Of a stretch of 64,000 nt of DNA, positions 1,652-49,431 are shown one piece after another. The notes beneath the pieces are model-generated. The model searched no databases. It had not been told where the DNA came from and worked only from the letters and a program-made list of their open reading frames with translations. Source of the stretch: Candidatus Thorarchaeota archaeon. Lineage in GTDB: Archaea; Asgardarchaeota; Lokiarchaeia; Sigyniarchaeales; SOKP01. The stretch spans positions 2,409 through 66,408 of the forward strand of contig JBHLRJ010000003.1 in the NCBI GenBank assembly GCA_048882645.1, in the 5' to 3' direction. The position numbers were made by a program, and so were the translations under genes. Positions within the stretch are counted from its first letter, which is position 1; every line of letters begins with the position of its first letter.

Positions 1652-2653
1652 CTATTTCTCTTCAAATTTTTTCATAATCTCTTGTCTTCGCTTCTCTAAT
1701 CGTTGCATTCTGTTAATCTCTTGCTCACGAAGTTCTGGTTTTAAATATTTCAAGTCATCCATAACTTTCATGGCACCTTCTTGCATTCTCGAAAGCACTT
1801 TTTGTTTCTCTTCTGGATCTAGTTGATATAACATTTTATAATATCTTTCCATACTCTCTTCAGGATCTTGAGGGATTCTTCCAGACAATAATCCTCCTTC
1901 TACTTTAAGAGTTATACCAGTAATAAAACTGCTTGCATCTTCAGCTAGAAACAATGCTGCTTGGGCTATATCTTCTGGTAATCCTGCACGCCTAATAGGT
2001 TGCAAGTTTGCTAGATTTTCTTCCATTAGTTCCCCAAATTTTACAGCTGCTTTGGGTGATAAACCATAAGCTTGACCAAAGATACCTGTCATAATACCTC
2101 CAGGCGCAATTGCATTTGCTCTTATTCCGAAAGCTCCCAATTCTACAGCAGCGATTCTCGTAAGCTGGACAATTCCTGCTTTAGAAAGTGAATAAGGTAA
2201 TGTACCCATCCCATGTTGAAAAGCCGCGACTGAACTAGTAGTTATGAAACACCCTGAACCTTGTTCTTTCATGATTGGAATCGAGTATTTCATACATAAG
2301 AAAGCGGCACGTAGATGGATAGCTACAGTATGATCAAACTCCTCAGTGGGAACCTCCTCAATTGCACCAACAGGACCAGGATTACCAGCATTTGAAAAGA
2401 CTATATCAAGTCGTCCAAATTTTTTAATAACAAGATCAATAGCTTTTTTTATATCAACCTCTTGAGATACATCTGTATGAATGTAAACTGCGTTAGGACC
2501 AAGTTCACTCGCAATTTTTTTTCCCATTTCATCCCATATGTCGGCTAATATGACCCCTTTACATCCTTCTTCAATGAACAGCTTCGATGTTGCTCTTCCT
2601 ATTCCACCAGCTGCTCCTGTTATTAAGGCTACTTTATTATCTAATTTTCCCAT
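1652..2653 (-). CDS. short-chain dehydrogenase/reductase (SDR) with a ~75-aa helical C-terminal extension
   Basis: TGAAGGIGRAT Rossmann motif, NAG motif and YSLSKAG (YxxxK) catalytic motif. Tandem paralogue of 2736-3731. Confidence 0.85.
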   Translation of the reverse strand: MGKLDNKVALITGAAGGIGRATSKLFIEEGCKGVILADIWDEMGKKIASELGPNAVYIHTDVSQEVDIKKAIDLVIKKFGRLDIVFSNAGNPGPVGAIEEVPTEEFDHTVAIHLRAAFLCMKYSIPIMKEQGSGCFITTSSVAAFQHGMGTLPYSLSKAGIVQLTRIAAVELGAFGIRANAIAPGGIMTGIFGQAYGLSPKAAVKFGELMEENLANLQPIRRAGLPEDIAQAALFLAEDASSFITGITLKVEGGLLSGRIPQDPEESMERYYKMLYQLDPEEKQKVLSRMQEGAMKVMDDLKYLKPELREQEINRMQRLEKRRQEIMKKFEEK

Positions 2654-2735
2654 AGTTCAACAAAATGAATGATTTTTTAATACTTTGATGATTAAAAAGA
2701 AGGTTGAATAGAATTCTAGATCGATTTATCTCAAT

Positions 2736-3731
2736 TTATTTTTCTAGATTCAAGACTCTATTCCTTATTTTAGCTAATTTCATCATTCTTTTTATTTCCT
2801 TATCCCGAATTTTTGGCTTTAAATATTTCATTCTTTCCAGTGTTTTCTGAGCTCCTTCCTCTGCCATGTCTGCTATTATCTTTTGATCTTCCGAATCCAA
2901 CTGACTAATCATATTAAACCATCTTTCTGTAGATTCTTCAGGATCTTGAGGGATTCTTCCAGATAACAGTCCTCCATCTACTTTAAGAGTTATTCCAGTA
3001 ATAAAACTACTAGAATTACTTGCTAAAAATAAAGCCGCTTGAGCAATATCTACTGGCAAACCGGAACGCCTAATTGCTTGATCTCCAGAAATAGAATCTT
3101 TCATTAATTTACCCAGTTTTTCAGCTCCTTCACGAGATAACCCCATGCCCTGTCCAAAGATTCCAGTAGCTATAAAACCCGGTGCAATTGCATTGGCTCT
3201 AATTCCATAAGCTCCTAATTCCACAGCGGCAAGACGTGCAAGATGGATTAATCCTGCTTTCGAAATTGAATAGGCTAATCCTCCCATTCCCTGTTGAAAA
3301 CCCGCCACAGAACTTGTAAATATAAAGCATCCTGAACCTTGTTTTTTCATGATTAGTATTGAATGTTTCATAAATAAAAATGCAGCTCGAAGATGGATAG
3401 CAATTGTTTGATCAAATTCATCTGTAGGGATTTCTTCAATTACTCCTCCAGGGCCAGGATTTCCTGCATTTGAAAATACAATGTCAAGCCTTCCAAACTT
3501 TTCAACAGTTATCTCAATAACTTTTATGATGTCATTTTCCTGAGACACATCTGCATGGATATATAATGCATTTGGACCAAGTTCTTTAGCAGTTTTTTCA
3601 CCCATCTCATCCCAAATATCTACCATTACAACACCCTTAGCTCCTTCTTGAATAAAAAGTTTTGATGTTGCTCTACCTATACCGCCAGCAGCACCTGTTA
3701 TAAGTGCCACTTTCCCATCTAATTTTCCCAT
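2736..3731 (-). CDS. short-chain dehydrogenase/reductase (SDR), tandem paralogue
   Basis: TGAAGGIGRAT, NAG and YSISKAG motifs. Roughly two thirds of residues are identical to 1652-2653 by eye, including the C-terminal extension (PQDPEES.ER ... KYLKP). Confidence 0.85.
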   Translation of the reverse strand: MGKLDGKVALITGAAGGIGRATSKLFIQEGAKGVVMVDIWDEMGEKTAKELGPNALYIHADVSQENDIIKVIEITVEKFGRLDIVFSNAGNPGPGGVIEEIPTDEFDQTIAIHLRAAFLFMKHSILIMKKQGSGCFIFTSSVAGFQQGMGGLAYSISKAGLIHLARLAAVELGAYGIRANAIAPGFIATGIFGQGMGLSREGAEKLGKLMKDSISGDQAIRRSGLPVDIAQAALFLASNSSSFITGITLKVDGGLLSGRIPQDPEESTERWFNMISQLDSEDQKIIADMAEEGAQKTLERMKYLKPKIRDKEIKRMMKLAKIRNRVLNLEK

Positions 3732-3821
3732 AGTTTACAAAAAATGAATAATCAATTAATATTTTAATCATAAGACTACATTTGTTATAAGAATATTAGA
3801 TGGCATTTATTATCAAAATAT

Positions 3822-22937: not shown

Positions 22938-23732
22938 TTAATTTTGAAGTTGTTTAATATGTTTTTCAATATTTTTTATAGTTGAAGGAGGAAGTTCACT
23001 TAGCGATTTTCCTTGAAACCTATTAAAACAACTACAACAAAATCTTAATTCATTTACTCTAAATTTACCTAAGGTATGTCTTCTTCCAGGTTCTTCTAAC
23101 CATGCTCCGCAGTTAACACATTTCTTAAAAAGATTAATTCTTCTATTAAGTTGAATTCTTGTTGATAAACCCAAATCCCTTCTTACGTTATTTATATTAC
23201 ATCTGATTCTTTGCATATCAGTTTGAAAAAGAGAACAGAGAACCATATCAAACAATTCATTAACATTTCTTCCCGTTTTATGAGATACTTCAATGAATCC
23301 ATCCAAATTGAAGTCTCTTGATAGTTGAAGCCCTTCTGAATAAGAGACATCTCTACAGGTTTCCAAATCTGAGTTGGTTCCCGCTAAGATTATAGGTATA
23401 TTTCCTGCATTTTCTCTAACAACCTGTAACCACTTGGGGAAATTTTCCAGTGTAAACTTATTTGTAATATCATAGAGAAAAATTGCACTATCGGTGCCCC
23501 TACAGTATTGAGAAAGTAAGAACCTAAATCGTTCTTCGCCCCCAAAATCCCAAATTTGTATTTTTGCCTTTTTTCCTTCAAAACTAACAGTCTTGGAGTA
23601 AAAATCAACTCCGATAGTTAATCCTAATCCTTCTGTATAAAATCCTGTTATATATCGGATTGTTAAGGAGGCTTTTGGGACAGAAGAATCCCCTAACAAC
23701 ATAACCTTAAAAGTATAATCATAATCTGTCAT
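22938..23732 (-). CDS. Rab-like small GTPase with an atypical P-loop and a C-terminal CxxC...CCxC domain
   Basis: G1 GDSSVPKA (no GK[ST]), G3 WDFGGEE, G4 TNSD, G5 SHKTG. C-terminal CVNCGAW...FCCSCF. Confidence 0.7.
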   Translation of the reverse strand: MTDYDYTFKVMLLGDSSVPKASLTIRYITGFYTEGLGLTIGVDFYSKTVSFEGKKAKIQIWDFGGEERFRFLLSQYCRGTDSAIFLYDITNKFTLENFPKWLQVVRENAGNIPIILAGTNSDLETCRDVSYSEGLQLSRDFNLDGFIEVSHKTGRNVNELFDMVLCSLFQTDMQRIRCNINNVRRDLGLSTRIQLNRRINLFKKCVNCGAWLEEPGRRHTLGKFRVNELRFCCSCFNRFQGKSLSELPPSTIKNIEKHIKQLQN

Positions 23733-23963: not shown

Positions 23964-23991
23964 CCTCCTAGTAGTGAAAGCTACTAGGAGG
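23964..23991 (-). terminator. GC-rich hairpin followed (on the minus strand) by a T6 run
   Basis: CCTCCTAGTAG-tgaaag-CTACTAGGAGG is a perfect 11-bp stem in an AT-rich spacer. The minus-strand continuation GCTTAATTCTTATATTTTTTAAC contains the T-run. It lies ~70 nt after the 28-aa ORF stop. Confidence 0.4.
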
Positions 23992-24058
23992 TAATTCCGC
24001 CCAAGTCTTCAATATGGAAATAAAAAAGAATAAGTATGATATAATAAAATATTAAAAC

Positions 24059-24145
24059 TTATTTGACAATAAACACTGGATTGAATCCTGCGTGTTTACC
24101 AATATCATGTCTTATTTTTATTTCTTTCTTGGCTGCTTTTTTCAT
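24059..24145 (-). CDS. 28-aa basic peptide, copy 1 (MKKAAKKEIKIRHDIGKHAGFNPVFIVK)
   Basis: Own translation. ATG at 24145 and TAA at 24059-24061. Conserved paralogue at 26752-26838 with conserved upstream TATA. Confidence 0.4.
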   Translation of the reverse strand: MKKAAKKEIKIRHDIGKHAGFNPVFIVK

Positions 24146-24200
24146 TTTTTTCACTCTTTTTTAGTTTTTTTTTTTCTAATTATTATACTGATTATATTGC

Positions 24201-24208
24201 ATATATAG
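24201..24208 (-). promoter_or_regulatory. TATA-box-like element of peptide cassette copy 1
   Basis: The minus strand reads CTATATAT preceded by an A-rich BRE-like stretch, ~56 nt upstream of the ATG. Identical in copy 2. Confidence 0.4.
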
Positions 24209-24324
24209 TTTTTATTACAAAACTTTCTGTGAAGTTCGAATTAAATAAAAAGTTATAAAAGAAATTTGTAAAATTGCTCTTAAACGTTGAAGGATCCTAT
24301 TAAAACAGTTTTAAACCTAGGTCT

Positions 24325-25383
24325 CTAGACCAAAGTCTCAAAAATAGTTTTCGCTAGGTATGGGAATGATATTGTTTGATTTTTATACTCGGATAGAATT
24401 CTTTTGACTTCCTCAAATCTGTTTTTCAAGAGATTATGAAATTCATTAGATTTTAAGAAATCGTTAAACAACTCTGCGAATTCCAATTTAAACTTGTCTA
24501 TTCGCATTTCCTCTTTATCAAATAAATTGATCTCCCGTTTGAGTTCATAAATATGATTATAAAGATCCTCCCCAAAGATAGAGATATCATTTTGATAAGG
24601 TATCCCTTTTATTTCTCCTAATTGAAATGATTCACCTGTAGAGTTAATTAAAGATATTTGGTTTAAGCTCTCCCATGTTAAATTTGGTCCTAAAATGGGG
24701 ATAATTGGTATTTGATTGTCTAGTGCCAACTGTAGTTCAAATTTACATGGTTCAGAGTGTAATGAATTTTCAGTAGCAAAAAATAATAAGATATGACTTA
24801 ATGGGACGTATTTTCTCATAAATTCTATAAAGTTCATACCACCCTGAATCGCTTCTTCACTATAATATACTTTATAAATTTCTTCTCGCTCAGAAAGAAA
24901 TTTAGATGTATCCAGTATATTGATCAAATTGCTCTCAAAATCCTTTTCAGCATGACTACAAAACACAGTAATTGCATCATGTCTCCTGCAATAATCAAAT
25001 ATTTCAACTATATTGTTCTTTACAACCTGTGTCCACTCACCTTCCCATGGATTCCCATCTAAATGGATCTCATTTACACTTTTTAAATGCCACAATTTCA
25101 TAGGAAGTCCAGTTAATCTGTTACTCGTTAATCCGAGAAATTGTATCTTTTCGAGATTCATTATCGAATCTGGAAGGTTGGGTAGCTGATTATATGATAA
25201 GTTTAATATTTTTAGCGACTTCAGTTTATGAAAAGATTCTGGAAGTTTCTTAATTTTGTTGAAATATAGATTCAAATTTATCAAAAATCGTAAATTACCA
25301 AAACTTTCCGGCAACTGTTCTAATTTATTATTACTACAATCTAACTCTTCAAGTGTGATCAAATCTCCAAAACAATCTGGCAA
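24325..25383 (-). CDS. LRR + TIR-like domain protein (downstream part of an in-frame TAA-interrupted GTPase-LRR-TIR gene)
   Basis: LRR units (LxxLxLxxNxLxxLP) continue in register from the upstream ORF. TIR-like region ITVFCSHAEKDF ... ILLFFATENSLHSEPCKFELQLA. No ATG; the first codon is a TTG directly after the TAA. Confidence 0.7.
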   Translation of the reverse strand: MPDCFGDLITLEELDCSNNKLEQLPESFGNLRFLINLNLYFNKIKKLPESFHKLKSLKILNLSYNQLPNLPDSIMNLEKIQFLGLTSNRLTGLPMKLWHLKSVNEIHLDGNPWEGEWTQVVKNNIVEIFDYCRRHDAITVFCSHAEKDFESNLINILDTSKFLSEREEIYKVYYSEEAIQGGMNFIEFMRKYVPLSHILLFFATENSLHSEPCKFELQLALDNQIPIIPILGPNLTWESLNQISLINSTGESFQLGEIKGIPYQNDISIFGEDLYNHIYELKREINLFDKEEMRIDKFKLEFAELFNDFLKSNEFHNLLKNRFEEVKRILSEYKNQTISFPYLAKTIFETLV

Positions 25384-26490
25384 TTATTCTAATCGATTTT
25401 CAGCTAAGTCAAGTTGTTTTAGAGATTTTAATTGACAGACTACTTCTGGAAGATGAATAAAATGGTTTCCATTCAAGTTTAGATAATCAAGCTTCTCTAA
25501 TCTATTCAGAGAATCAGGAAGATCTGATATCCTATTTCCCCTTAAGGATAAATATTCGAGCAATTCCAACTTCCCTATTGATGAAGATAAATTCTCTAAA
25601 TTGTTTTTAGTAAGACCTAAAATTTTAAGATTTTTAATTGTAAAGACAAATTCTGGAATACTTGATATTAAATTATCATAAATCCTCAATTCTTCTAGTG
25701 AATTAAGTTTTGTTAGAATATCGGGGATTGCCTTTAATCCACATCTAAATAAGCCGAGACCTTTTACTTGATCTCCATCGATAATTACCCCAAAAGGTTC
25801 TGAAGATAATTTAGTGACTACTGGGATTTCTTGTTTTATTAATTTCTCTAGTTCTTCAAGAACTCTTGCTTGTTCTTGTTCAATTCCCCATCTATTCTGC
25901 TTAATGATTTGTTCAATTTCCATTGTAGGACGAAAACCAACTTCATCCTCGCTAATTTTATAATCAATTCCTTTACTTTTTAAAATTTGAGATATTAATT
26001 CCTGGAAAAGCATATCAACGTTTTTTCCTGTTTTTGCAGAGGTTTCAACATATGGGCAAGACAATTTATTAGCGACTGATATTGCATCCGACTCTGACAC
26101 TTTTCGATCATCTACTAAATCACTTTTGTTTCCTGCTAGAACTATTGGAATCCGACCTGTAGTTTGATATAACTCATCAAGCCAAGCAGTAACGCTTAAG
26201 TTAAAGGTATTAGCATCAGCAAGATCAAATACGACAATGGCTGCAGAAGCTCCCCTGAAAAACGTAGTTTTTGGTAATTTTAAACGTTCTTGGCCTGCCA
26301 TATCCCATAAGGTAAGATTAAGTACTAGATCTCCCACTTCTATTTGTTTGATAGAAAAATCAGCCCCGATAGTTAGAATATAGGATTCTTTGAAATGACG
26401 ATCTACATACCTCCTAATCAGACTGGTCTTCCCAACTCCAAAATCTCCTATTAACACAATTTTAAAGACTAAAGTGGTTTTTTCAGACAT
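25384..26490 (-). CDS. Ras/Rab-like (Roc-type) small GTPase fused to LRRs
   Basis: G1 GDFGVGKTS, G3 WDMAGQE, G4 NKSD, G5 SAKTG. A pre-LRR motif EQARVLEELEKLIKQEIP is followed by 5-6 LRRs. Ends at TAA 25384-25386 inside an LRR. Confidence 0.8.
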   Translation of the reverse strand: MSEKTTLVFKIVLIGDFGVGKTSLIRRYVDRHFKESYILTIGADFSIKQIEVGDLVLNLTLWDMAGQERLKLPKTTFFRGASAAIVVFDLADANTFNLSVTAWLDELYQTTGRIPIVLAGNKSDLVDDRKVSESDAISVANKLSCPYVETSAKTGKNVDMLFQELISQILKSKGIDYKISEDEVGFRPTMEIEQIIKQNRWGIEQEQARVLEELEKLIKQEIPVVTKLSSEPFGVIIDGDQVKGLGLFRCGLKAIPDILTKLNSLEELRIYDNLISSIPEFVFTIKNLKILGLTKNNLENLSSSIGKLELLEYLSLRGNRISDLPDSLNRLEKLDYLNLNGNHFIHLPEVVCQLKSLKQLDLAENRLE

Positions 26491-26751
26491 AATAATATCA
26501 ACTTAATAAATTGCTTTTCTTAAGTATTAGGATTATTATAGCATTTTTATTTTATTATCATTATCTTGTTTTTTTATATTAATAATGATTAAATAAAGCT
26601 TTAATTGATTCATTGAAAAAAATGAAGAATAATTGTTCAATTATAGTTCTAGATAGGAAAAAACAAATATTATATCATACCCATTAACATTTGAAAAGAG
26701 AAACCTTAAACATTTCTAATAAAATTAATAAAAAAAGGAGAATAAAAAAAA

Positions 26752-26838
26752 TTATTTAACAATAAACACGGGATTAAATCCTGAATAACTACCAACATCA
26801 CTTCTTATTTTAATTTCTTTCTTTACTTTTCTTTTCAT
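26752..26838 (-). CDS. 28-aa basic peptide, copy 2 (MKRKVKKEIKIRSDVGSYSGFNPVFIVK)
   Basis: Own translation. 20/28 residues are identical to copy 1, and the C-terminal GFNPVFIVK is identical. Confidence 0.4.
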   Translation of the reverse strand: MKRKVKKEIKIRSDVGSYSGFNPVFIVK

Positions 26839-26947
26839 TTTTGGCACCTTTTTTAGGTTTGTTCTAATTAATAATATTGATAGAATTTCATATATAGTTT
26901 TTATTCCAAAACTTTCTACGAAGTTTGAACAAAAGAAAAAGTTATAA
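26752..26947 (-). repeat. ~200-bp cassette (promoter + 28-aa ORF), copy 2
   Basis: See 24059-24258. The TATA-like ATATATAG is at 26890-26897. Confidence 0.7.
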
Positions 26948-26985
26948 TATTAAATTTATATTTAGGGAAAAACACCCATCATCTC

Positions 26986-27486
26986 TTAGATTTTTGAAGA
27001 GTATAACCTTTCTATATATAACTTTAATGATTCTATATCTTCAAAATAAAAAAGGTTTTTATCCTCCTTAAAAAAAGGAGTTAATAATCCTCCTCTATTT
27101 AAGACCTCAGTAATTTTAACATCCCTTAAAACAAATACTTTCGTTTTTTCATAAAATTCTTTAAAAGAAAGAATAATTCCCATTTCAATCATATGACCTC
27201 CTTTATCATGTTCTATAATCATGATGATTTCATTTGAGAATTTTGCGATAAGATCGAATTTTAAAACTAAATTTTCTAGATGCGTTCGCCTGAATTTATT
27301 TTCGAAAAATGCCAAGTTATTTTCAATTCTGTTTATGATCTTTTGTACTTCCTGAAGGTTTATAAAGGTGTCTTCATCGTATGAACCACATATAAAGATC
27401 TTGTTTTTATTCAAATCATAGACAGAAAAGATATTAATAAACTCATCTAAGAAATCATCCCATGCACTATCATGTGAAAATTGCAA
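26986..27486 (-). CDS. hypothetical protein (weak resemblance to nucleoside 2-deoxyribosyltransferase-like fold)
   Basis: KIFICGSY early strand and a later DKGGHMIEMGI motif are reminiscent of the D.G..fE.G motif of NDT-like enzymes. Weak. Confidence 0.3.
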   Translation of the reverse strand: MQFSHDSAWDDFLDEFINIFSVYDLNKNKIFICGSYDEDTFINLQEVQKIINRIENNLAFFENKFRRTHLENLVLKFDLIAKFSNEIIMIIEHDKGGHMIEMGIILSFKEFYEKTKVFVLRDVKITEVLNRGGLLTPFFKEDKNLFYFEDIESLKLYIERLYSSKI

Positions 27487-27658: not shown

Positions 27659-28000
27659 TTGGATAAATTGAAAAAGCTTGAAGATAGAAGGAAAGAATTG
27701 GAAATTATTTCTGAAAAAACACGATACAAAATACTCCTTACGTTATTAGCTAGTGAGACCTCACTTTCCTTCACTAGATTAAAAGAATTATTACCCTCCA
27801 TTCAAGAAAATAATTTAAATTATCACCTTAAAATACTTAAGGAGAATGGATTCATCAAGAATGAGAAGAGAATCGATTATAAACGCTCTGAGCCTCGCTC
27901 ATTTTACTCTCTCAGTCGAAAGTCTCTTGATTTGCTTGGATCCTTAGGATTAACGGCAGTAAAAGAAGAATTCCAAGCTCTTTTTAAGCAAATGACATAA
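27659..28000 (+). CDS. ArsR-type winged-helix transcription regulator
   Basis: TRYKILLTLLASETSLSFTRLKELL...NLNYHLKILKENGFI pattern. TTG start preceded by AAAGGAGAGG. Confidence 0.65.
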   Translation: MDKLKKLEDRRKELEIISEKTRYKILLTLLASETSLSFTRLKELLPSIQENNLNYHLKILKENGFIKNEKRIDYKRSEPRSFYSLSRKSLDLLGSLGLTAVKEEFQALFKQMT

Positions 28001-28012
28001 AAAACTAAGTTT

Positions 28013-28624
28013 CTAAAGACTTTTTTTTTCTCTTTTGATAGTGTCCAATAATCGTCGTGCTTCACTGAAATCTGGTCTGAGATTTAATGCTTTTTCGGCG
28101 CACTTTTCAGCTTGTTCATAATCACCTAATTCTCTATATTTTAATGCCAAATTAAACCAGGTTTCAATTTTATCAGGTTTAAATTCTACTGCTTTTTTAT
28201 AACATTCTATTGCTTTTTCTGGTTCACCTTTGAAAGTATAAGTATTACCCATATTATTCCATGCTTCGTGATCTTTAGGATCTAATTCAACGACCCTCAT
28301 ATAAGTATCTATCGCTCTGTCGAATTCTCTATCATCCCTGTAGGCATTACCCATATTGTATAATACATCAATGTTATTTGGTTTTAATTCTAAGGCTTTA
28401 TTCCAACACTCAATTGCCTTTTCAATATTTCCTTTTCCTAAATGATATGCATTACCCAGATTATACCATCCCTCAAAATGTTCAGGATTGAGATCAACAG
28501 TTTTTTGCCAACACTCAATCGCTCCATCGGCATCACCTTCTTGTCCATAAACTAATCCCTTATCATAGAATTCTTGGGCTTCTTTAATTTTCTTCTTTTT
28601 TAAATCATCCTTTTTACCTGTCAT
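28013..28624 (-). CDS. TPR repeat protein
   Basis: Five regular 34-aa units with W.N.GN.Y.....A.E...KA.EL.P. Confidence 0.85.
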   Translation of the reverse strand: MTGKKDDLKKKKIKEAQEFYDKGLVYGQEGDADGAIECWQKTVDLNPEHFEGWYNLGNAYHLGKGNIEKAIECWNKALELKPNNIDVLYNMGNAYRDDREFDRAIDTYMRVVELDPKDHEAWNNMGNTYTFKGEPEKAIECYKKAVEFKPDKIETWFNLALKYRELGDYEQAEKCAEKALNLRPDFSEARRLLDTIKREKKSL

Positions 28625-46029: not shown

Positions 46030-49000
46030 TTAAATATCTTGATACCCACGCTTTTTAGCTTCAGAATATGCTTTTTCGGCTTCTTTCTTTTTACCCATTT
46101 CTTCATTAGCAGCTCCTATATTTGCCCAATATACTGCTTCATCTGGATTATTTTCAGCTGCCTCCTTGAAACATGACACAGCATCTTTAAATTTACGTTG
46201 ATTGAAGTGTAATAATCCAATAGCATTCCAAATTCCTGCATTCTTAGGGTTAAGATCCAAGGCTTTTTTAAAATATTCAATCGCTTTTTTGTACTCAGCC
46301 AAATTCTCATAAGCCCTTCCTATGTTCTCAAGATAAATGTCATCTGTAGATTTAAGTTGATGAGCTTTTTCATATTGTTTAATTGCATCTTCATATCTTT
46401 CCATGTGAAAATATACATTTCCGAACATATTCCAAGTGGATGATTCATTGGGATTTACTTCCAACGCTTTATTATAATATTCAATCGCTTTATCATATTC
46501 TTCTAACTGATCATAAACACCCCCCATAATCGAAAGATAGAATTCATTTGGGGGTTCTAATTCAATGGCTTTTTCATAATATGTAATCGCTTCATTATAG
46601 TTTTCTAAACGTAAATAAAGATCTCCTAATTTATACCATGTGGACGCATCATCTGGATTAACATCCAAAGCTTTATTGAAATATTCTATTGCTTTATCAA
46701 ATTCCCCTAATTCACTATATGATCCTCCTATATTCTCAAGATAGACTCCCTTTGTTTCAAGCTCTACGGCTTTTTCATAGTTAGTGATTGATTTATGGTA
46801 CTCTCCCATCGCATAATAAACATTACCTAACCTATTCCAATTAGACGAACTTTCTGGATTGATATCCAGAGCTTTATTTAAGTACTCAATCGCTTTATCA
46901 TATTGGTTTAAAAGATTATATGATATGCCTATAACCGAAAGATACAATTCACTCTTTGGTTCAAGTTCTAAAGCCTTTTCATATTTTGTAATCGCTTCTT
47001 GGTATTTTTGCATGTAATAAAAAACATTTCCGAATTTATACCAAACCGACGGATCATCTTGTTTAATTTCCAAAGCCTTATTATAATATTCAATCGCATT
47101 ATCGTATTCTTTTAACTCGGTATAAGATCCTCCTATATTTTCATAATAGACTTCATCATCAGGCTCTAGTTCTACAGCTTTTTTATAATTAGCAATCGAC
47201 TCATGAAATTTCTCCATACTATAATACACATTTCCTAATTTATTCCAAGTAGATGCCATCTTTGGGTTAAGTTCCAACGTCTTTTCAAAATATTCAATGG
47301 CTTTTTCATGTTGTCCTAATTTTTCATAAGCTCCCCCCAAATTTTCATGGTAAACATCGTTCTTAGGATCTACCTCGATAGCTTTCTCATATTCTTTAAT
47401 CGCCTCTTCGTAATTTTTTAGGTAATAATAAACATTTCCTATTTTATTATGGCTTGAAGACCTTTCTGGATTAATTTCCAAAGCTTTCTTATAATAATCA
47501 ATCGCTTTCTCGTGTTGATCCATATCTTCATAAGTTCCCCCTATATTCTCATGGTAAACTTCAATCAAAGGATCAAGCTCAACAGCCATTTCATATTGTT
47601 TAAGTGCTTCCTCATAATCTTCCATATGATAATACACATTGCCTAATCTATTCCAAATAGACGATTGTTTCGGATTAACTTCCAAAGCTTTTTTAAAATA
47701 TTCAATTGCCTTATCATATTTTTTTAATTGATCGTACACTCTTGCAATATCTGAAATAAAGAATTCATTACTCTTGAAAATCTCATGGGCTTTTTGATAA
47801 TACTCTAATGCTTCCTCGTACTTTTCTTGTTCATAACTCAGATTCCCAAGTCCCGACCAAACTTGAGGATTTGTAGCATTAATTTCCAATGCCTTTTTAA
47901 GAGTTTCTGTAGCTTTATCGAATTTTTTAAGTCTTGTGTAAGCACCTGCTAAATTTATATAGGCAATTGCATCATTGGGGACAATTTCGATTGCTTTTTT
48001 ATACATTTTAATTGATTCTTCATATTCCTCTTTCTCATAATAAATATGTCCAAGTCCCGTCCACCCCCAACTTGATCTGATATTAGATTCTTTACGAAGA
48101 TCAAGAAAATCACTGACTTCATCTGTAGGGCTTAGTTTTGTTGTTTTTTCATAACATTCTCGAGCCTTTTCATAATCTTTTTGAAATCTATAGATATCTC
48201 CAAGTCCTGACATCGCATCAGTATTCAGATTATCTAATTCAAGAGCTTTCTCGAAACATTTCCTTGATCGATCATAATCTTTTATTCTATAATATGAATA
48301 TCCCATATTAGACCAGAGATAGGATTCAGAACTATTCAATTTCAACAATTTTTGATAGGTATCAATCGCTTCTTGATCTTTTCCCAATTTTGAATATACT
48401 AAAGCTAAGGTGTTTAATACAGATCCACTATTTTCATTGATAGCGAGAGCTCGGTTAATGTATTCCATCGCTTTATCCATATCAAATAAACAATAACTAA
48501 TATATGCAATATCATCAAGTGCATATTCATTATTAGGATCATATTGCAGTACTTCTTCTGCCAGTTTTAATCCTTCGTCATATTGCAGCTTATAATAATA
48601 AATTCCGGCTAAAAGCAATAGTAAATATTCATTTTTTGGATGATCTTTTTGTAAATCTTTAAGGATTTTAAATGCCTCATCATGTTTCTTTTGACCAATT
48701 AAAAGTTCACTTCTTAACAAAAGGCATTCAAATGAATCGGGCTTACGTGCATGGATATAATTAACATACTTCTCCGCAGATTCATAATCTTTAATTTCAA
48801 TATTAAGGCGTCCGAGCGCTATGGCTCGATTATTACTTGGTTCAACTGCTTCTATTTCATTTATTAAAGTCTCAACATAGTTTTTTCCTAAGCCTGGTTT
48901 CCATAACCATTTTGAGATAATAAAAGGATCCTCGGCAATTTGATCAATTATCCCTTGAATTTCATCTACCTCAAGATCAGGTTCTGTAGATTCATCTTTT

Positions 49001-49431
49001 TCTTTTATATCTAAATCAGGGAATTTCTCCAAAATCTTAGGGATATTATCTTTTATTTTTGTGTAAATTGCATTTAAAGTCTCCTCAATATCTGTGAAAT
49101 CAAACTCAACACCTCTATATTGTTTAATTATTGTAGGGATGTGGTCTAATTTATGGTATACGGGTATTATGACTTTGTCAAGTAATAACGCAGGACTCCA
49201 TTCCTTTTGTTGTCCTTTCGATGTTTCTGTCTTTTTAGAACAAATCAATAACATGATATGACAGTCCTTAAGACTTTGATCCATAAATTGGATCATATCA
49301 CCCGTTGCATCTCTATACCAATACATAACTTCTTCAATCTCAGGCATTTCACTCAATCTGTCCGCCATTTGTTCAATTTTAAAATTATCTAAATCGCCCA
49401 ATGAATAACTAATAAACACTTTAAGTTTCAT
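46030..49431 (-). CDS. TIR-like domain fused to a very long TPR array (1133 aa)
   Basis: N-terminus KVFISYSLGD ... IMLLICSKKTETSKGQQKEW (TIR-like), then more than 25 TPR units. Confidence 0.8.
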   Translation of the reverse strand: MKLKVFISYSLGDLDNFKIEQMADRLSEMPEIEEVMYWYRDATGDMIQFMDQSLKDCHIMLLICSKKTETSKGQQKEWSPALLLDKVIIPVYHKLDHIPTIIKQYRGVEFDFTDIEETLNAIYTKIKDNIPKILEKFPDLDIKEKDESTEPDLEVDEIQGIIDQIAEDPFIISKWLWKPGLGKNYVETLINEIEAVEPSNNRAIALGRLNIEIKDYESAEKYVNYIHARKPDSFECLLLRSELLIGQKKHDEAFKILKDLQKDHPKNEYLLLLLAGIYYYKLQYDEGLKLAEEVLQYDPNNEYALDDIAYISYCLFDMDKAMEYINRALAINENSGSVLNTLALVYSKLGKDQEAIDTYQKLLKLNSSESYLWSNMGYSYYRIKDYDRSRKCFEKALELDNLNTDAMSGLGDIYRFQKDYEKARECYEKTTKLSPTDEVSDFLDLRKESNIRSSWGWTGLGHIYYEKEEYEESIKMYKKAIEIVPNDAIAYINLAGAYTRLKKFDKATETLKKALEINATNPQVWSGLGNLSYEQEKYEEALEYYQKAHEIFKSNEFFISDIARVYDQLKKYDKAIEYFKKALEVNPKQSSIWNRLGNVYYHMEDYEEALKQYEMAVELDPLIEVYHENIGGTYEDMDQHEKAIDYYKKALEINPERSSSHNKIGNVYYYLKNYEEAIKEYEKAIEVDPKNDVYHENLGGAYEKLGQHEKAIEYFEKTLELNPKMASTWNKLGNVYYSMEKFHESIANYKKAVELEPDDEVYYENIGGSYTELKEYDNAIEYYNKALEIKQDDPSVWYKFGNVFYYMQKYQEAITKYEKALELEPKSELYLSVIGISYNLLNQYDKAIEYLNKALDINPESSSNWNRLGNVYYAMGEYHKSITNYEKAVELETKGVYLENIGGSYSELGEFDKAIEYFNKALDVNPDDASTWYKLGDLYLRLENYNEAITYYEKAIELEPPNEFYLSIMGGVYDQLEEYDKAIEYYNKALEVNPNESSTWNMFGNVYFHMERYEDAIKQYEKAHQLKSTDDIYLENIGRAYENLAEYKKAIEYFKKALDLNPKNAGIWNAIGLLHFNQRKFKDAVSCFKEAAENNPDEAVYWANIGAANEEMGKKKEAEKAYSEAKKRGYQDI
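46081..47709 (-). repeat. eight tandem 204-bp (68-aa, two-TPR) super-repeats inside the TIR-TPR gene
   Basis: Units start AIEY[FY].KAL..NP and contain W..LGNVYY ... YE.A.EL.P....Y.ENIGG.Y. One unit is 67 aa. Confidence 0.7.

Follow-up and report, generated by a model that had tools for sequence, protein, structure and literature searches.

Two diverged copies of a promoter-like cassette with a conserved 28-codon reading frame, a candidate pair of micro-protein genes, at a GTPase-LRR-TIR locus of a Lokiarchaeota-type Asgard lineage

The 64,000-nucleotide stretch analysed here (positions 2,409 to 66,408 of contig JBHLRJ010000003.1, assembly GCA_048882645.1, Candidatus Thorarchaeota archaeon; G+C content 30.5%; hereafter the window, to which all coordinates refer) carries two copies of a short intergenic cassette, each of which comprises conserved upstream blocks, a TATA-like box, a 5' leader and a 28-codon open reading frame (ORF). 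All genes from 27486 down to 22938 lie on the minus strand, and in the order of transcription the locus reads as follows: a gene of the DUF8170 family, cassette copy 2, a 261-nt spacer, a gene encoding GTPase, leucine-rich repeat (LRR) and TIR domains (GTPase-LRR-TIR), a 56-nt spacer, cassette copy 1, a 326-nt spacer and a gene for a 264-aa Rab-like GTPase (Table 1). The neighbouring proteins have homologs whose records bear the names Promethearchaeota or Lokiarchaeota, which marks the source as an Asgard archaeon of the Lokiarchaeota type. The original prediction, made from the letters of the window, had described ~200-bp direct repeats that bracket the GTPase-LRR-TIR gene, and these repeats are borne out by nhmmer, with limits slightly wider than the earlier coordinates. 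The repeat unit measures ~225 nt, its two copies are ~78% identical (i.e. 22% diverged), and cross-copy blastn between loci aligns ~205 nt at 79% identity (E ~1e-44). The similarity runs from ~115 nt upstream of the ATG to ~10-15 nt past the stop codon, where it ends abruptly, and the 28-mer GAAAGTTTTGNAATAAAAACTATATATG is found twice in the window (0 occurrences expected). A profile of both copies recovered exactly two cassettes in the 64 kb (nhmmer), so that the repeat is not a common intergenic element, which had been named as a possible objection. The upstream blocks noted earlier (TTATAACTTTTT, AGAAAGTTTTG and CTATATAT) are all present in both copies, 20 of the 28 residues of the encoded peptides are identical, and the last nine (GFNPVFIVK) are the same in both window copies. 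The earlier proposal that whole expression units were duplicated as direct repeats thus stands, given that the upstream blocks, the TATA-like box, a Shine-Dalgarno-like (SD-like) motif, the ORF and the T-runs that follow it are all repeated.

Table 1. Coordinates of the cassettes, of the elements within them and of the adjoining genes (BRE, transcription factor B recognition element).
Feature	Window coordinates	Strand	Basis or remark
Cassette copy 1 (upstream blocks, TATA-like box, 5' leader, 28-codon ORF, first T-runs)	24042..24268	-	nhmmer and repeat families D8/D9
Cassette copy 2, ~78% identical to copy 1	26734..26959	-	nhmmer, repeat families, orthologs in L043 and L048
Copy-1 28-codon ORF with stop (ATG 24145 to TAA 24059), encoding MKKAAKKEIKIRHDIGKHAGFNPVFIVK	24059..24145	-	
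Copy-2 28-codon ORF with stop (ATG 26838 to TAA 26752), encoding MKRKVKKEIKIRSDVGSYSGFNPVFIVK	26752..26838	-	
SD-like GAGTG, 6 nt before the copy-1 ATG	24152..24156	-	
SD-like AGGTG, 6 nt before the copy-2 ATG	26845..26849	-	
Invariant 17-mer AATAAAAACTATATATG, putative BRE/TATA, copy 1	24200..24216	-	identical in all five aligned cassettes
Invariant 17-mer AATAAAAACTATATATG, putative BRE/TATA, copy 2	26889..26905	-	identical in all five aligned cassettes
Candidate transcription-factor site, copy 1: palindrome AACTT-N6-AAGTT next to the TATA-like box, on its upstream side	24221..24236	.	
Palindrome AACTT-N6-AAGTT, copy 2	26910..26925	.	
70-nt element between copy 1 and the Rab-like gene, TTATTCTTTTT[T/C]ATTTCCATATTGAAGACTTGGGCGGAATTACCTCCTAGTAGCTTTCACTACTAGGAGG	23964..24033	-	unique in window
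Ras/Roc GTPase - LRR - TIR_2 gene between the cassettes	24325..26490	-	Pfam
264-aa Rab-like GTPase gene with C-terminal Cys-rich extension, 326 nt downstream of copy 1	22938..23732	-	
166-aa DUF8170 gene, ending 26 nt before the start of copy 2	26986..27486	-	

Related contigs, reached through the neighbouring proteins, supplied orthologs of both copies. Both cassettes are found at the same positions in L043 (NCBI GCA_048940845.1, 94% identical; copy 1 at 3580-3803 and copy 2 at 898-1122), copy 2 is present in L048 (JGI 3300057030, 95% identical; 2007-2252) and copy 1 in L045 (ENA, 78% identical; 3-202), where it encodes the peptide MKRKAKKEIKISKDIGRHAGFNPHFIIK, and a further contig (L044, 83% identical) begins just downstream of copy 1. 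The two-copy arrangement is unchanged in every related contig that covers it. With regard to the start of the reading frame, the 31-aa ORFs listed for the cassettes begin at an upstream GTG, and since this codon is not conserved (GTA in copy 2 of L043), the 28-aa reading from the ATG is the right one. ORFs on the plus strand over the cassettes were rejected as not conserved, the one across copy 1 being broken in copy 2.

The conservation of the 28-codon ORF bears the mark of selection on a protein. In a test on six ORF sequences, three per paralog (the pairs share branches and are not independent), the ratio of nonsynonymous to synonymous differences per site (pN/pS) ranged from 0.06 to 0.49 in the ORF frame (Fisher p 0.004 to 0.09 per pair) and from ~0.7 to 2.2 in the two shifted frames. 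Copy 1 gave 0.29-0.33 against its L045 ortholog and just 2 changes, both synonymous, against that of L043, and copy 2 gave 0.06-0.12 against the L043 and L048 orthologs. Purifying selection on the ORF, on which the original prediction had made its case depend, was in this manner found across copies and orthologs, and is specific to the frame. Furthermore, all six ORFs have 28 codons, an ATG and a TAA, with zero indels in 87 nt, and indels occur in the adjacent leader. The SD-like pentamers that precede the ATG in the window (Table 1) read AGGTA in copy 2 of L043, and many of the long ORFs in the window are preceded by motifs of this kind (GGTG, GAGTG or GGAG) at the same spacing. Judging by these features, translation of the 28-codon ORF is likely. 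The peptides contain 9-10 Lys/Arg per 28 residues and a hydrophobic stretch of only ~8 residues, and AlphaFold2 places an N-terminal helix over the Lys/Arg-rich half (mean pLDDT, the predicted local distance difference test score, 68; low to moderate confidence).

These data bear directly on the alternative that the cassette is a non-coding duplicated regulatory module or a small-RNA gene, in which an open frame arose incidentally within A-rich sequence. The chance of a 28-codon open frame is indeed ~10% per frame at 30% G+C (an estimate from base composition), the part upstream of the ORF is conserved more than the ORF itself, the peptide has no homologs in family and protein searches, and gene callers skipped the ORF in all contigs but one. 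Such a module would, however, leave unexplained an excess of synonymous changes that is confined to one frame, the complete lack of indels in 87 nt next to a leader that has them, and the conservation of the ATG, the TAA and the SD-like motif; moreover, the cassette has no match in Rfam. We therefore hold a purely non-coding function to be quite unlikely.

Archaeal promoters consist of an A/T-rich TATA box preceded by a purine-rich BRE, ~25 nt upstream of the transcription start, and oligo-T is the usual archaeal termination signal. Both kinds of signal have candidates in the cassettes. The 17-mer AATAAAAACTATATATG, which we regard as a putative BRE/TATA, lies 55-59 nt before the ATG, a distance compatible with a leader of ~30 nt (TATA-like strings being common at 30% G+C). 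Among the five aligned cassettes the arms of the adjoining palindrome AACTT-N6-AAGTT are invariant and its spacer is variable; the pattern has 3 matches in the window vs 0.4 expected, two of them in the cassettes, and the third (43927), inside a 112-aa ORF, was set aside as a chance match. Between the window and L045 the identity amounts to 98% in the upstream block (24242-24200), as compared to 79% in the ORF and 77% in the coding sequence of the Rab-like gene. A scan for sigma-70 promoters (22 found vs 20 expected) was discarded as uninformative for an archaeon. At the other end of the cassette, runs of T8 and T7 directly follow the stop codon of copy 2, and several T-runs follow copy 1, succeeded by a hairpin and T6.

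Beyond copy 1 lies a 70-nt element that is identical in the window, L043, L044 and L045 bar one T/C site (flanks 78-94% identical), and that closes with a perfect hairpin of 11 bp (23964-23991) and a T-run behind it. Rfam has no match for the element, and no counterpart follows copy 2; the element may be a non-coding feature in its own right or else the 3' terminus of the transcript of copy 1.

Regarding the surroundings, the bracketing of the GTPase-LRR-TIR gene holds as a matter of position, and an equally valid description of the layout is that each cassette lies on the same strand as, and upstream of, a gene for a Ras-family GTPase. This second description invites the alternative that the cassettes provide the downstream GTPase genes with their promoters and 5' leaders, the 28-codon ORF being an upstream ORF (uORF) or leader peptide that tunes GTPase-LRR-TIR (copy 2) and the Rab-like gene (copy 1). 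Each cassette is on the strand of its GTPase gene, whose start codon follows at 261 nt for copy 2 and at 326 nt for copy 1 with no other gene between, neither GTPase start has an obvious SD motif, and the promoter blocks are the most conserved part of the cassette, all of which would suit a leader. Several observations run counter to it: the T8/T7 runs after the copy-2 stop, together with the T-runs, hairpin and T6 after copy 1, lie between the ORF and the GTPase gene; a separate conserved block with a TATA-like sequence (~23879-23800) precedes the Rab-like gene; the two leaders share nothing outside the cassette; and GTPase-LRR-TIR orthologs of 66% and 53% identity do without such a leader. 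In addition, with an identity of only 34% between the GTPase domains encoded downstream of the two cassettes, no cassette-plus-gene unit was duplicated. On balance we regard the leader or uORF explanation as unlikely. The low identity of the GTPase domains, together with the lack of alignable sequence downstream of either cassette, restricts the duplication to the cassette itself, and a segmental duplication of cassette and GTPase gene was ruled out on the same grounds (GTPase domains 34% identical, flanks unalignable).

The GTPase-LRR-TIR gene is split in the window by an in-frame TAA (25384-25386) into ORFs of 368 aa and 352 aa. A near-identical Logan contig (L001) differs from the window over 3266 nt by a single mismatch, which is a GAA at this very codon, the gene is intact in L043 (721 aa), and L048 reads through the position of the TAA; the window TAA is therefore either a very recent nonsense mutation or a sequencing/assembly error. 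The 264-aa Rab-like GTPase and its orthologs depart from the canonical motifs, with an altered P-loop (GDSSVPK[A/T]S, in which Pro replaces the second conserved Gly), TNxD in place of NKxD, and an extension rich in Cys at the C terminus (CxxC...CCxC). The sequence GDASVGKTS is retained in related Asgard Rabs of 175 aa. The substitutions suggest that the 264-aa protein may be a non-canonical or pseudo-GTPase. The DUF8170 protein stands out by its unusual conservation (75-88% identity among Promethearchaeota and metagenome-assembled genomes labelled Thor-, Odin-, Hermod- and Hodarchaeota), and in all loci seen its gene is adjoined by a divergently transcribed winged helix-turn-helix (wHTH) gene (HTH_20/DUF7347; window 27659-28000).

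Pfam assigned the ten neighbours to DUF362, Ras GTPases, LRR-TIR, HTH, TPR, hydrolase and glyoxalase families. Enzymes for the maturation of ribosomally synthesized and post-translationally modified peptides are not among these ten, which speaks against the suggestion that the 28-aa products are precursors of modified peptides. In PADLOC the peptides, DUF8170 and the 264-aa GTPase matched no model, GTPase-LRR-TIR had only a marginal LeoA match (E = 0.007), and the HTH protein matched only Csa3-like wHTH models. Elsewhere in the window, two adjacent minus-strand genes (1652-3731; 333 and 331 aa) are tandem paralogs whose DNA is ~74-77% identical over ~500 nt at a spacing of 1078 nt (repeat families D5/D6), and long arrays with a period of 102/204 nt (46030-49431 and 28013-28624) are TPR-repeat coding sequence, the repeat families D1-D4 being common to a 1133-aa protein and a 203-aa TPR protein.

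Outside the contigs named above, the cassette was sought at related loci and in larger collections. It is absent after a DUF8170 ortholog of 85% identity, and more distant relatives keep the DUF8170 gene, which is there followed by other genes. Neither the cassette nor the peptide motif nor the 70-nt element was found around the 66% (L052) and 53% (L053) orthologs of GTPase-LRR-TIR, over the contig or flanks of 10 kb, and two loci with paralogs of the Rab-like gene have no cassette. The back-translated C-terminal motif gave 38 matches in GTDB genomes, all of them unrelated (RpoC 'GFNPIFMMKDSGARGS' and chance), the motif being one that would miss diverged tails; the same motif with a stop codon gave 3 unrelated matches in JGI metagenomes, with a pattern that would miss the L045 variant GFNPHFIIK. 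Among the IMG/VR viral contigs nothing related was found by the relaxed peptide motif (which would likewise miss diverged tails), the promoter 28-mer or the hairpin, and a genome scan with low-complexity N-terminal patterns from the peptide alignment returned 599 matches, none of them a relative. A profile search of 1.84 billion representative proteins yielded one real match, P0121, which is copy 2 of L048 called at excessive length, and one low-complexity false match. P0121 (L048 2065-2232) is a 55-aa call that runs through the promoter, and its IMG name ('Trk-type K+ transport system membrane component') is evidently spurious; this is the one contig in which a gene caller did not omit the 28-codon ORF. 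Neither 31-aa ORF is on record by exact look-up, the peptides and the cassette are without match in Pfam, PADLOC, a PDB sequence search and Rfam, and nothing was found in the literature on such peptides or on small ORFs beside Asgard TIR or GTPase genes. These searches place the cassette pair in a narrow lineage of the Promethearchaeota (Lokiarchaeota-type Asgard archaea), as far as sequence comparison allows it to be traced.

A functional tie to the immune-like gene, which the original prediction had considered, finds no support beyond position: the 66% and 53% orthologs of GTPase-LRR-TIR occur in different surroundings, where the cassette is missing from both sides, and no other LRR/TIR gene inspected (those of L052 and L053) is flanked by it. 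As judged from these contigs, the link between the cassette and GTPase-LRR-TIR is a positional feature of this one lineage and not general to such genes. The idea that the repeats serve recombination, with gain and loss of cassettes, is likewise unsupported: the arrangement is stable in the covering contigs, no other copy turned up in the window, in the other loci retrieved or in the collections scanned, and there are no terminal inverted repeats and no viral or mobile matches. In its wider form, this explanation takes the cassettes for a small mobile or recombinogenic element of the type of miniature inverted-repeat transposable elements (MITE), or for a substrate in the excision or gain of a TIR gene cassette, and it would account for ~225-nt direct repeats with sharp borders around a 2.4-kb segment, for the different contexts of the GTPase-LRR-TIR gene in other lineages, and for the other genes that follow the DUF8170 gene in more distant relatives. 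An element of this kind is, on the other hand, hard to reconcile with only two copies in 64 kb, with C-terminal-motif scans of GTDB, JGI and IMG/VR that found no relatives (though diverged tails of the L045 type would be missed), with the lack of terminal inverted repeats or target duplications on inspection of the alignments, and with copies that are 22% diverged in an arrangement that has not changed in any covering contig; no deletion variant was seen, though few contigs could show one. We consider mobility very improbable.

Taken together, these observations lead us to favour, as rather probable, the view that each repeat is a micro-protein gene transcribed on its own, and that the two are paralogs, regulated together and restricted to one lineage. 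In such a gene the palindrome AACTT-N6-AAGTT would serve as the operator for a dimeric transcription factor and the invariant AATAAAAACTATATATG as BRE/TATA; transcription would start ~25 nt after the TATA-like box (TATATATG), yielding a leader of ~30 nt with the SD-like GAGTG or AGGTG, and the 28-codon ORF would be closed by the oligo-T runs right after its stop, acting as an archaeal terminator. The product would be a cationic micro-protein with a Lys/Arg-rich, probably helical N-terminal half and a short hydrophobic tail, GFNP(V/H)FI(V/I)K. Since the same cis elements were kept although the copies diverged before the sampled lineages split, both paralogs are probably co-regulated. As to function, the likeliest guess is that the product is a small trans-acting protein with a binding or regulatory role, perhaps towards the neighbouring Ras-family GTPase proteins.

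A number of points count against this view of two micro-protein genes. Only six ORF sequences from ~four lineages entered the selection test, in pairs that lack independence, and for two of these pairs p exceeds 0.05. Nor is the C-terminal motif fully fixed, with a V to H and a V to I change in L045 (GFNPHFIIK), and in every copy the G-F-N-P codons form a palindrome, GGATTnAATCC (24075-24085 and 26768-26778), so that part of the conservation of the peptide tail could act at the level of DNA or RNA. The promoter part is better conserved than the ORF, and the main selected feature could be regulatory DNA or RNA. No homolog, domain, structure or defence-family match offers a functional handle for the peptide, and the promoter, the transcription start, the terminator and the translation are all predicted from the nucleotide sequence.

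Independently encoded small proteins of <=50 aa are known from Methanosarcina mazei, Haloferax and, as stress-induced proteins, from E. coli. Reviews and catalogues of small proteins include PMC11364881 and PMC7261190. The ORFs described here resemble such archaeal and bacterial small proteins in being tiny, in their own (predicted) promoter and ribosome-binding site, in having been missed by annotation, in their restriction to a lineage and in the purifying selection upon them; they differ in showing no sequence relationship to described small proteins, in forming two diverged paralogs 2.7 kb apart, and in an unusually conserved promoter. With uORFs and leader peptides they have in common a short same-strand ORF a few hundred nt upstream of a larger gene (in both cases that of a Ras-family GTPase), and what separates them are the strong T-runs after the stop, the spacing of 260-330 nt, the unrelated leaders beyond the cassette and the existence of orthologous GTPase genes without the ORF. 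A TIR-domain protein could be toxic, to judge by TIR NADases, and a length of ~30 aa next to such a protein recalls the toxins of type I toxin-antitoxin systems or small antitoxin peptides beside immune effectors. Unlike type I toxins, the peptides are cationic, with ~8 hydrophobic residues, no transmembrane stretch and a charged helix in the AlphaFold2 model; nor is there a visible antisense RNA or overlapping gene, a PADLOC match, or a peptide beside other TIR orthologs. The antitoxin-like or regulatory role that the original prediction had listed is no more than a conjecture. With MITE-type repeats that carry outward promoters the cassettes share the format of a ~225-nt intergenic repeat with sharp borders, and they depart from these in that there are two copies only, their positions are stable, terminal inverted repeats are lacking and the enclosed ORF is under selection.

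Asgard genomes are being mined for the origins of eukaryotic signalling and immunity, in which small GTPases, LRR proteins and TIR proteins figure, and Asgard genes of fewer than 30 codons are invisible to standard annotation (the ORF described here was called once, and then wrongly extended). We argue that mini-genes of this size are recognisable from sequence alone through paralogy, orthologous retention and frame-specific selection, and that the cassettes offer, in a lineage with almost no mapped promoters, a sharply defined candidate promoter and operator. A more specific proposal, which we regard as improbable, is that the 28-aa peptides are trans partners (brake or co-factor) of GTPase-LRR-TIR and of the P-loop-altered Rab-like protein, under a shared palindromic operator and with the 70-nt hairpin element in the same unit; if true, it would amount to a previously undescribed micro-protein layer on Asgard small-GTPase/TIR signalling. 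More broadly, if the peptides were to have the GTPase or TIR proteins next door as their targets, these eukaryote-like systems would gain a further level of regulation; otherwise the peptides would represent one more lineage-specific small protein.

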